64,000 nt of DNA, taken from the sequence record PV340561; one strand, given 5' to 3'. Under the pieces are notes generated by a model that was not told the origin of the DNA, did not search any database, and saw nothing but the letters and a program-made list of their open reading frames with translations. Shown here piece after piece: positions 26,127 to 26,146 of this stretch; the stretch's first letter is position 1, and every line of letters begins with the position of its first letter. Source of the stretch: Escherichia phage PhiR41_1. The position numbers and the translations under genes are program-made.

Positions 26127-26146
26127 ATAGGTAAGTGCATACCTAT
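26127..26146. promoter_or_regulatory. palindromic site ATAGGTA-AGTGCA-TACCTAT upstream of the lysis cassette
   Basis: Perfect half-site palindrome; the same half-sites recur at 7109-7128 and related sites. Confidence 0.5.

Follow-up and report, generated by a model that had tools for sequence, protein, structure and literature searches.

A dispersed 20-bp palindrome in the SSU5-like phage-plasmid PhiR41_1 as the probable operator of its immunity repressor

Introduction

What reads the short symmetric sequence that recurs ahead of the genes of Escherichia phage PhiR41_1? The copy at issue lies at 26127-26146 of a 64,000-nucleotide stretch of its DNA (sequence record PV340561; this whole stretch is called the window below), upstream of the lysis genes. 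A first-pass annotation had assigned it to a family built from ATA(A/G)GTA and TAC(T/C)TAT half-sites with spacers of 2-6 base pairs (bp), and had read the family as either the element's own promoter consensus or the binding site of a second regulator. Our analysis suggests that these sites are probably the distributed operators of the phage immunity repressor, most likely a 128-amino-acid Xre-type protein encoded at 43740-44126.

By megablast of positions 24000-30000, the window is about 95% identical to Escherichia phage Cyrano (pLF82) and about 83% identical to Salmonella phage SSU5. Its gene order follows the Cyrano annotation, running through terminase, head, tail, lysis, ParA, helicase/primase and the Xre repressor with an integrase, and onward through CobT/MoxR-like genes, DNA polymerase III (Pol III) alpha, UvsY, a gp32-like single-stranded DNA-binding protein (SSB), a recombinase, RepA and SbcCD; transcription is nearly all from the plus strand. 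Judged by this gene content, the window holds about 60% of a phage-plasmid of the SSU5/pHCM2/pMT1 type. Elements of this kind are frequent in both Enterobacteria and Acinetobacter: a terminase of the family is present in about 1,000 PLSDB records, and Salmonella Typhi pHCM2 and Yersinia pestis pMT1 belong to it, as do carriers of resistance genes. Regulatory information for the group is absent from a 2024 review, and literature searches for promoters, operators or transcriptomes of SSU5 and pHCM2 returned only a paper on strain LF82 (PMC9928086) and reviews. In the searchable literature we found nothing on the control of lysogeny in these elements, though an earlier description of the motif is not fully excludable.

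Results

All site coordinates of the first-pass annotation hold on checking. The heptamer ATARGTA occurs 33 times on the two strands of the window, compared with 10.74 +/- 3.05 in dinucleotide shuffles, and none of 100 shuffles reaches 33. On a curated gene map, in which 90.6% of the window is coding and 9.4% (6,044 bases) intergenic, 25 of these 33 matches are intergenic, a density of 4.14 per kb versus 0.14 per kb in coding DNA (30-fold; Fisher p = 1.5e-19), and the eight coding matches are about what chance would supply. The motif is thus clearly not equally frequent in coding sequence, the outcome that the first-pass annotation had named as telling against it, and its finding survives. Motif discovery on the intergenic regions, which it had also called for, points the same way: in an unbiased 7-mer scan against a second-order background the first ranks go to ATAAGTA/TACTTAT (16 versus 1.9 expected) and TAAGTAA (15 versus 1.7 expected). 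Three other enriched heptamers, CCGCTGA, GCTGACA and AGCATAC, were considered as parts of the motif and rejected; they are the RepA iterons.

The motif has a single geometry rather than spacers of variable length. It is one fixed 20-bp palindrome, ATAGGTAAGT·ACTTACCTAT, with the degenerate consensus ATARGTAAGT·ACTTACYTAT. When 22 non-redundant sites, from the window and from the portions of Cyrano outside it, are aligned, the information is confined to a block of 20-21 bp, R-ATARGTAAGT.ACTTACYTAT, whose consensus is a perfect palindrome; the flanks are nearly free of information, with a weak T at position 23 (13 of the 22 sites) and TTaAAa upstream. There are 18 stretches of 20 letters, or about 16 sites, that match at 15 or more of 20 positions, while 200 Markov simulations, run separately for coding and intergenic DNA, gave a mean of 0.6 and a maximum of 4. 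The site at 57184-57199, described as having a 2-bp spacer, is a regular 20-mer that begins at 57180 and matches at 18 of 20 positions; the short spacer is only apparent, because the half-site holds an internal 4-bp repeat (TAAG TAAG T). The supposed single half-sites turn out to be degenerate full palindromes with 14-17 of 20 matches, in which the gene-distal half is usually the better conserved, and just the one near 51921 is a lone half-site, at 51929. As to placement, the sites do lie in intergenic DNA ahead of genes, but at 21-132 bp from the next start codon rather than at 30-100.

The two-fold symmetry extends over all 20 bp without covariation between paired positions: position 4 (R) and position 17 (Y) combine independently, with five A.C combinations among about 16 sites. 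Dyad symmetry without covariation therefore points to a protein dimer on duplex DNA. One could instead imagine a signal in the RNA, such as a hairpin for processing, stability or translational control, since the sites lie in transcribed intergenic spacers and are mostly co-oriented with the genes. Compensatory changes are absent, however, many right halves are too degenerate to pair, and an Rfam search of the window gave no match, so that we rejected the hairpin reading.

What lies beneath the palindromes bears on how they might act. Two of them fill the 17-bp spacers of near-consensus sigma-70 promoters that are kept in four genomes. The site at 5148-5167 (ATAAGTCTGTACTTACCTAT, 18 of 20 matches) lies within the 3' end of the portal gene, ahead of a gene at 5267 and the capsid genes, between a -35 element TTGAAA at 5142-5147 and a -10 element TATGAT at 5165-5170; the promoter is conserved despite its location inside portal coding DNA, and the site recurs in Cyrano, SSU5 and Klebsiella pMB7868_2. 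The site at 57180-57199 (ATATATAAGTACTTACTTAT) follows directly on an intrinsic terminator (57146-57162 and a T-run), between TTGAAA at 57174-57179 and TATTAT at 57197-57202. Ahead of the SSB gene, 52394-52413 (ATAAGTAAGCACTGATCTAT, 17 of 20) again falls within a 17-bp spacer, between TAGATA at 52388-52393 and TATCAT at 52411-52416. The palindrome at 9735-9754 (ATAGGTAAGTATACACTTAA, 16 of 20), ahead of a tail gene at 9804, is overlapped by a conserved promoter with an 18-bp spacer (TTGAAT 9722-9727, TACACT 9746-9751), whose -10 occupies motif positions 12-17.

At other sites the conserved -10 stands further downstream. For 34690-34709 (ATAAGTATATGATTACTTAT, 16 of 20) there are two conserved candidates, TATCTT at motif positions 18-23 and TGTAAAAAT at 34715-34723; the latter is an extended -10 (TGnTAnnnT-like) at motif positions 26-34, and in the same register TGGTATATT at 46836-46844 stands behind the palindrome of the MoxR-like ATPase gene (46811-46830, ATAAGTAATCACTTACGATA, 14 of 20, aligned in five genomes). 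The holin site itself (26127-26146, ATAGGTAAGTGCATACCTAT, 18 of 20; ATG at 26208) has its conserved extended -10, TGATATAAA, at 26164-26172, that is, at motif positions 38-46. By contrast, the -10 at 31256-31275 (ATAAGTAAGTAACTACCTAC, 17 of 20) is upstream: TATCAT at 31238-31243 (TATCAT or TATGAT among five aligned genomes) precedes the palindrome by 12 nucleotides, so that the palindrome would lie between about +7 and +26, where a bound protein could form a roadblock, and immediately ahead of the Shine-Dalgarno sequence of a gene starting at 31288. A weaker palindrome at 58807-58826 (ATAAGTAAACACTAACCACA, 14 of 20) adjoins the ribosome-binding site of the gene at 58840, and another at 59134-59153 (ATAAGTTAGTATCTACCTAT, 17 of 20) ends one nucleotide before the ATG at 59155.

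The remaining sites outside the immunity region are those at 35567-35586 (ATAAGTAAGCACAAGATTAT, 15 of 20), ahead of a gene at about 35589; 62554-62573 (ATAGGTATATACTTACTTAT, 18 of 20), ahead of the SbcD-like gene at 62686; 7109-7128 (ATAGGTATGTAATTACCTAT, 18 of 20), between a stop codon at 7100 and an intrinsic terminator hairpin (7135-7155, then a T-run); 16233-16252 (ATAAGTAAGTACTAATTTAC, 17 of 20), ahead of the minor tail protein L gene, with a -10-like TACTAT/TATTAT and a GC-rich hairpin (16262-16284) downstream of it; and 23031-23050 (ATAGGTAGGTACTAACTTAA, 17 of 20), ahead of the tail-fibre gene at 23094 and conserved in SSU5 and Cyrano. GC-rich hairpins begin 1-10 nucleotides past several palindromes (23051-23075 and 16262-16284 in the window, 22469-22489 in Cyrano). 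Adjacency to a terminator is not a general rule, a strict hairpin lying within 70 bp at just 3 of 16 sites. The hairpin ahead of the tail-fibre gene varies in sequence among the window, Cyrano and SSU5 with its pairing kept, has no U-tract, and may serve to stabilise the 5' end of the mRNA rather than to terminate transcription.

Overall, the conserved -10 elements occupy motif positions 12-17, 18-23, 29-34 or 41-46, with one upstream of the motif; the flanks of the 22-site alignment hold no -10 or -35 at a fixed offset. Sigma-70 matches of at least 9 of 12 overlap 6 of 16 sites, versus 12% of random intergenic positions. The general picture suggested by these alignments is of a symmetric site that would overlie host-type promoter cores in variable register, most often at about -29 to -10. 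A variable register, together with a site downstream of its -10 at 31256, is typical of operators and not of activator boxes. We also considered the left half-site as a sigma-70 -10 hexamer and rejected it by inspection, since no register offers a T at -7.

The same facts, two-fold symmetry included, mean that the motif is not a promoter consensus, the first of the two earlier suggestions; to them may be added the copy on the predicted +1 of the repressor promoter (described below), and the two near-consensus promoters need no extra element. Could the consensus belong to a sigma factor or RNA polymerase of the phage's own? Acinetobacter relatives of both lineages discussed below do encode a divergent sigma-70-like protein (phrog_3741, with a weak Sigma70_r2 match, E = 0.0026). 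However, tblastn and a profile hidden Markov model find no homologue in the window or in Cyrano, and the 69-amino-acid open reading frame at the syntenic place (48121-48330) matches the neighbouring phrog_3616 instead and was negative by hhalign against the sigma family. Perfect dyad symmetry and variable register are unfit for sigma recognition, and there is no conserved polymerase-sized protein of unassigned function. We therefore consider this explanation very improbable. The Acinetobacter proteins are encoded between a MoxR-like gene and dnaE in the early operon (24664-25329 in pDETAB1, 14915-15583 in another Acinetobacter relative).

One copy of the palindrome, overlooked by the first-pass annotation, lies in the immunity region. 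The gene at 43740-44126, on the minus strand, encodes a 128-amino-acid helix-turn-helix protein of the Xre/lambda repressor type (Pfam HTH_19/HTH_3 and PHROG 8 matches). The site at 44153-44172 (TCTGGTAAGTGCTTACCGAT, 15 of 20) lacks the outer ATA/TAT arms, and its core, GGTAAGTGCTTACC (44156-44169), is 30 bp upstream of the repressor ATG. It covers the predicted +1 of the repressor promoter, for which we propose a -35 TTTACA at 44198-44193, 16 bp, and a -10 TAATAT at 44176-44171 on the minus strand. On the plus strand it adjoins a rightward -10-like GATATT (44170-44175), as at 46811, and a rightward promoter towards a 70-amino-acid Cro-like gene may share the same -10 region. The block is conserved in pHCM2 and in Klebsiella pJX11-2, and related copies stand at the same place in the other Klebsiella class and in both Acinetobacter lineages. 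Thus of the second earlier suggestion, a site for a second regulator, the regulator site is supported, but the primary immunity repressor is likelier to be its reader than a second regulator.

Comparison of related elements shows that the element is family-wide and its sequence lineage-specific. The Cyrano genome carries about 26 sites, none of them in its 85-105 kb accessory region. In two Klebsiella plasmids, pJX11-2 and one other, the same motif ranks first among intergenic 7-mers, and in S. Typhi pHCM2 it is one of the enriched ones (TAAGTAA, 10 versus 1.1 expected). Where orthologous upstream regions from up to five genomes are aligned, the palindrome is kept and the flanks diverge. In Acinetobacter pDETAB1, whose terminase is 59% identical, about 25 copies of a different palindrome, ATTAGTAAGC.GCTTACTAAT, take its place (AGTAAGC, 26 versus 1.6 expected), and in a second Acinetobacter lineage, NZ_CP155477.1, the palindrome is ATCAGTCAGT.ACTGACTGAT. 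In this second lineage the left arm is ATC, so that symmetry predicts GAT on the right, and yet the right arm is often TAT, which is what selection for an overlapping -10 would produce.

These lineage differences bear on who reads the site. A host regulator such as NarL or NarP may come to mind, since the NarL heptamer consensus is TACYYMT and the half-sites TACCTAT and TACTTAT fit it. But NarL and NarP pair their heptamers convergently across 2 bp in a 7-2-7 site, and here they are inside-out, as AKRRGTA-N6-TACYYMT. Furthermore, elements of different lineages in a single host genus carry different motifs, which argues for a factor encoded by the element. Between them, the covariation and the lineage data largely refute both a host-regulator site and the RNA-level signal considered above, the pair to which we give the least credence. 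The Xre-type repressor, on the other hand, is the only evident sequence-specific helix-turn-helix protein common to the E. coli and Acinetobacter elements. Among four enterobacterial repressor classes overall identity is no more than 40-65%, but the predicted recognition helix, YKNANNLSLIKSG, and the motif are both kept, and the recognition helices of the Acinetobacter repressors differ (I-NQNMVSFIVRG and FKRPNVLSMIKSG). This parallel change of helix and palindrome across three lineages is suggestive only, and it points to the Xre repressor.

The state of the sites in a lysogen can be read from a relative. The LF82 paper provides per-gene read counts from RNA sequencing of the Cyrano lysogen, 95% identical to our window, with an authors' cut-off of 49 (PMC9928086, table S1). 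The 20 genes directly behind palindromes of at least 16/20 have a median count of 8.5, where the background of the prophage is 9.8, and not one of them reaches the cut-off, as 18 of the 103 other genes do (Mann-Whitney p = 0.0095). For CYRAN_45, the orthologue of the repressor, the count is 95.8, about 10-fold above background, and genes active in lysogeny are without the site, among them the repressor, integrase, repA, parA, toxin-antitoxin pairs and the 85-105 kb accessory region. Even the near-consensus promoters are silent (CYRAN_4 at 10.9, CYRAN_56 at 4.99). Since TTGAAA-17-TATGAT should be constitutive with E. coli RNA polymerase, this silence would require a repressor, and we infer that the palindrome in the spacer, as the only conserved feature available there, is where it would bind.

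The same study offers a further observation. In LF82 within macrophages at 6 h, CYRAN_46, 56, 60-62, 5 and 12-13 rise 16- to 80-fold, and the other site-linked genes stay near the floor (PMC9928086). The responsive genes correspond to window positions of about 44374, 57232, 59155-59878, 6180 and 9804; the strongest rise is that of the Cro-like gene, and several of the top responders (CYRAN_56, 12, 5) sit behind the best sigma-70 promoters.

Several other features of the window deserve mention. Iteron arrays of the form (A)CCGCTGACAGCATAC, at 59927-60375 and 61487-61590, flank repA (60371-61585, minus strand) and are presumably the plasmid origin and copy-control sites. A large inverted repeat, CCTGCTTC(C/T)GTATATA...TATATACAGAAGCAGG, occurs at about 1575-1635 and 31117-31171, with a third copy in Cyrano at about 78085-78140; it encloses an AT-rich centre partly like the operator (ATAAGTAACTTAT). 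The three copies per genome mark boundaries between modules, one ahead of terS, one behind the par region and one close to dam, and could be bidirectional terminators, recombination sites or replication sites. The low-GC island at 37415-42109 (35-41% GC) is a chaperone-usher fimbrial cargo operon without palindromes, with a 194-amino-acid putative subunit, a PapD-like chaperone (38065-38754), a PapC-like usher (38790-41270) and an AraC-family regulator (41327-42109). It sits where Cyrano carries DNA ligase and tRNA genes, and its gene set is like that of the caf1 (F1 antigen) operon on pMT1 of Y. pestis, a related element. Between 24000 and 26000 the genes for the distal tail fibre and for assembly are mosaic: their matches, at 96-97% identity, are to lambdoid E. 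coli phages (PhiR40_1, ev243), in the side-tail-fibre regions, rather than to Cyrano or SSU5, and an antisense open reading frame there (25113-25907, 264 amino acids) has no Pfam match. Finally, a GIY-YIG (LEM-3-like) nuclease gene on the minus strand at 30234-31001 stands in place of the plus-strand Cyrano gene CYRAN_30, and is possibly a homing endonuclease or other mobile insertion.

Discussion

From the palindromes and from the silence of the genes behind them in the Cyrano lysogen, we infer that a protein binds these sites and represses, and that it is probably the Xre-type immunity repressor. How would such a system work? We propose that a dimeric phage-encoded repressor would sit on each 20-bp palindrome, over the host sigma-70-type promoter core of a lytic unit. 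Most palindromes would span about -29 to -10, their terminal TAT serving also as the start of the -10 hexamer. The units controlled would be those for head, tail, lysis, helicase/primase, MoxR/Pol III, SSB/recombination and SbcCD and, beyond the window, ribonucleotide reductase, ThyX and Dam. While the element lives as a plasmid, in lysogeny, every site would be filled by the repressor and RNA polymerase would be blocked from binding or roadblocked, silencing about 16 promoters in the window and about 26 genome-wide, and the copy on the repressor's own promoter would hold back repressor synthesis. If the repressor were lost, all promoters would be released together.

Several points weigh against this reading. 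Many sites lack a convincing -35 and most a conserved one, and the centre of the holin palindrome lies near -43 from its conserved extended -10, the classic position of an activator. In pDETAB1 the palindrome is rigidly fused to TATAAT without a -35, like an activator-dependent promoter, although the TATAAT is mirrored on the other arm and is alone no proof of a -10. The silence of site-linked genes in the lysogen is predicted by an activator model too. The parallel between recognition helix and operator is drawn from three lineages that are different in every other respect too, and in the Klebsiella class with a repressor of only 40% identity the motif is unchanged, so that a different, more conserved binder is equally possible on that evidence. 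Lastly, direct single-tier repression of both replication and structural genes would leave temporal order unexplained.

The first four of these points are at the same time the case for an activator box of phage middle or late promoters, in which an early phage dimeric activator would bind the palindrome and recruit E. coli RNA polymerase. This is the serious rival, modelled on the late promoters of P1, and there too a palindromic box directly upstream of or overlapping the -10 precedes many scattered lytic operons, with a similar centre, AAGT(N)ACTT. According to the annotated P1 late promoters, the P1 box is a 9-bp inverted repeat, AAGTNACTT, at -22, with a fixed 4-bp gap to a TANNNT -10 and no -35, and it is served by Lpa with host SspA. 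Here, in contrast, we have a 20-bp palindrome with an 8-bp centre, AAGTACTT, its register to the -10 varies, and the perfect TTGAAA at 17 bp at 5148 and 57180 should need no activation, although those promoters are silent in the lysogen. The site at 31256 lies downstream of its own -10, another copy covers the repressor promoter's predicted +1, and no candidate activator is common to the E. coli and Acinetobacter lineages. The P1 Lpa protein has no homologue in the window or in the whole Cyrano genome (tblastn, best E-value 0.46), and its family, phrog_1704, is unmatched among the small window proteins scanned, which were not every protein. We consider the activator box unlikely, and the analogy weaker than the operator reading.

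A different phage DNA-binding protein might also occupy the sites, with the same or a different effect on transcription: a KorB-like regulator of the ParB family, the 70-amino-acid Cro-like product of 44374-44586, or a phrog_1444 repressor encoded outside the window. A palindromic operator scattered over a whole replicon has a precedent in RK2 KorB. ParB-family proteins are conserved in all lineages, the ParB operon itself carries a site (Cyrano 105107; pDETAB1 64294), and the unchanged motif of the divergent Klebsiella class fits such a reader as well. However, KorB is expressed in the maintenance state, while CYRAN_119, the ParB orthologue, does not rise above the detection floor in the Cyrano lysogen (4.99, versus 95.8 for the Xre repressor) and phrog_1444 stands at only 18; and the classes that share the motif are exactly those in which the Xre recognition helix is kept. 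Another binder of this kind thus strikes us as rather improbable, and we return to the Xre-type repressor as the likely reader.

Operators distributed over a phage genome form a recognised class, with P1 C1, phiC31 CIR and N15 CB as members, and its features recur here: the site is repeated, one copy lies in the repressor control region, and genes follow an off/on pattern in the lysogen, the last taken from Cyrano. P1 C1 is the closest in setting. Both elements are plasmid-prophages of about 100 kb, a repressor-type site recurs at many dispersed promoters including the repressor's own control region, and part of the operator doubles as a promoter element. However, P1 operators are asymmetric 17-mers (ATTGCTCTAATAAATTT), none of which occurs in the window with 3 or fewer mismatches, and ours are symmetric; P1 C1 has 283 amino acids and no homologue here (tblastn best E-value 2.3); and P1 controls its structural genes indirectly through Lpa, whereas here the same site precedes head, tail and lysis genes. 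In phiC31, as Ingham and colleagues reportedly described in 1994, an inverted-repeat operator serves the autoregulation of the repressor gene and highly conserved intergenic copies (CIRs) recur genome-wide. Set alongside by description, the likeness lies in the inverted repeat, the autoregulation and the recurring intergenic copies; host, sequence and repressor family are unrelated, and phiC31 integrates in the chromosome where our element is a plasmid. The stoperators of mycobacteriophage L5 and cluster A also occur in many copies in short intergenic regions over early and late genes, and the sites at 31256 and 58807 are similarly roadblock-like. Stoperators, though, are asymmetric 13-mers in one orientation that act independently of promoters, whereas our sites are two-fold symmetric and most overlap promoter-like elements.

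A bolder version, which we advance only tentatively and think unlikely, would make the palindrome a dual-purpose switch across the SSU5/pSLy3/pHCM2/pMT1/Acinetobacter supercluster. It would be operator and promoter part at once, the TAT arm serving as -10 and the site replacing the -35, and its two readers would take turns, the Xre repressor to turn the promoters off and an early lytic protein to turn them on. If this were true, a single 20-mer would switch about 26 promoters on or off across the whole genome in a single tier, and its specificity would have split into at least three heteroimmune pairs of operator and repressor.

More generally, these phage-plasmids are clinically widespread but unstudied, and on our reading a single 20-bp site would mark their lytic regulon, name the likely repressor and define at least three lineage-specific operator variants. 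A map of the operators would be a map of the switch and would allow heteroimmunity between elements to be predicted, and knowledge of operator and repressor would provide handles for the induction, curing or engineering of SSU5-like elements.

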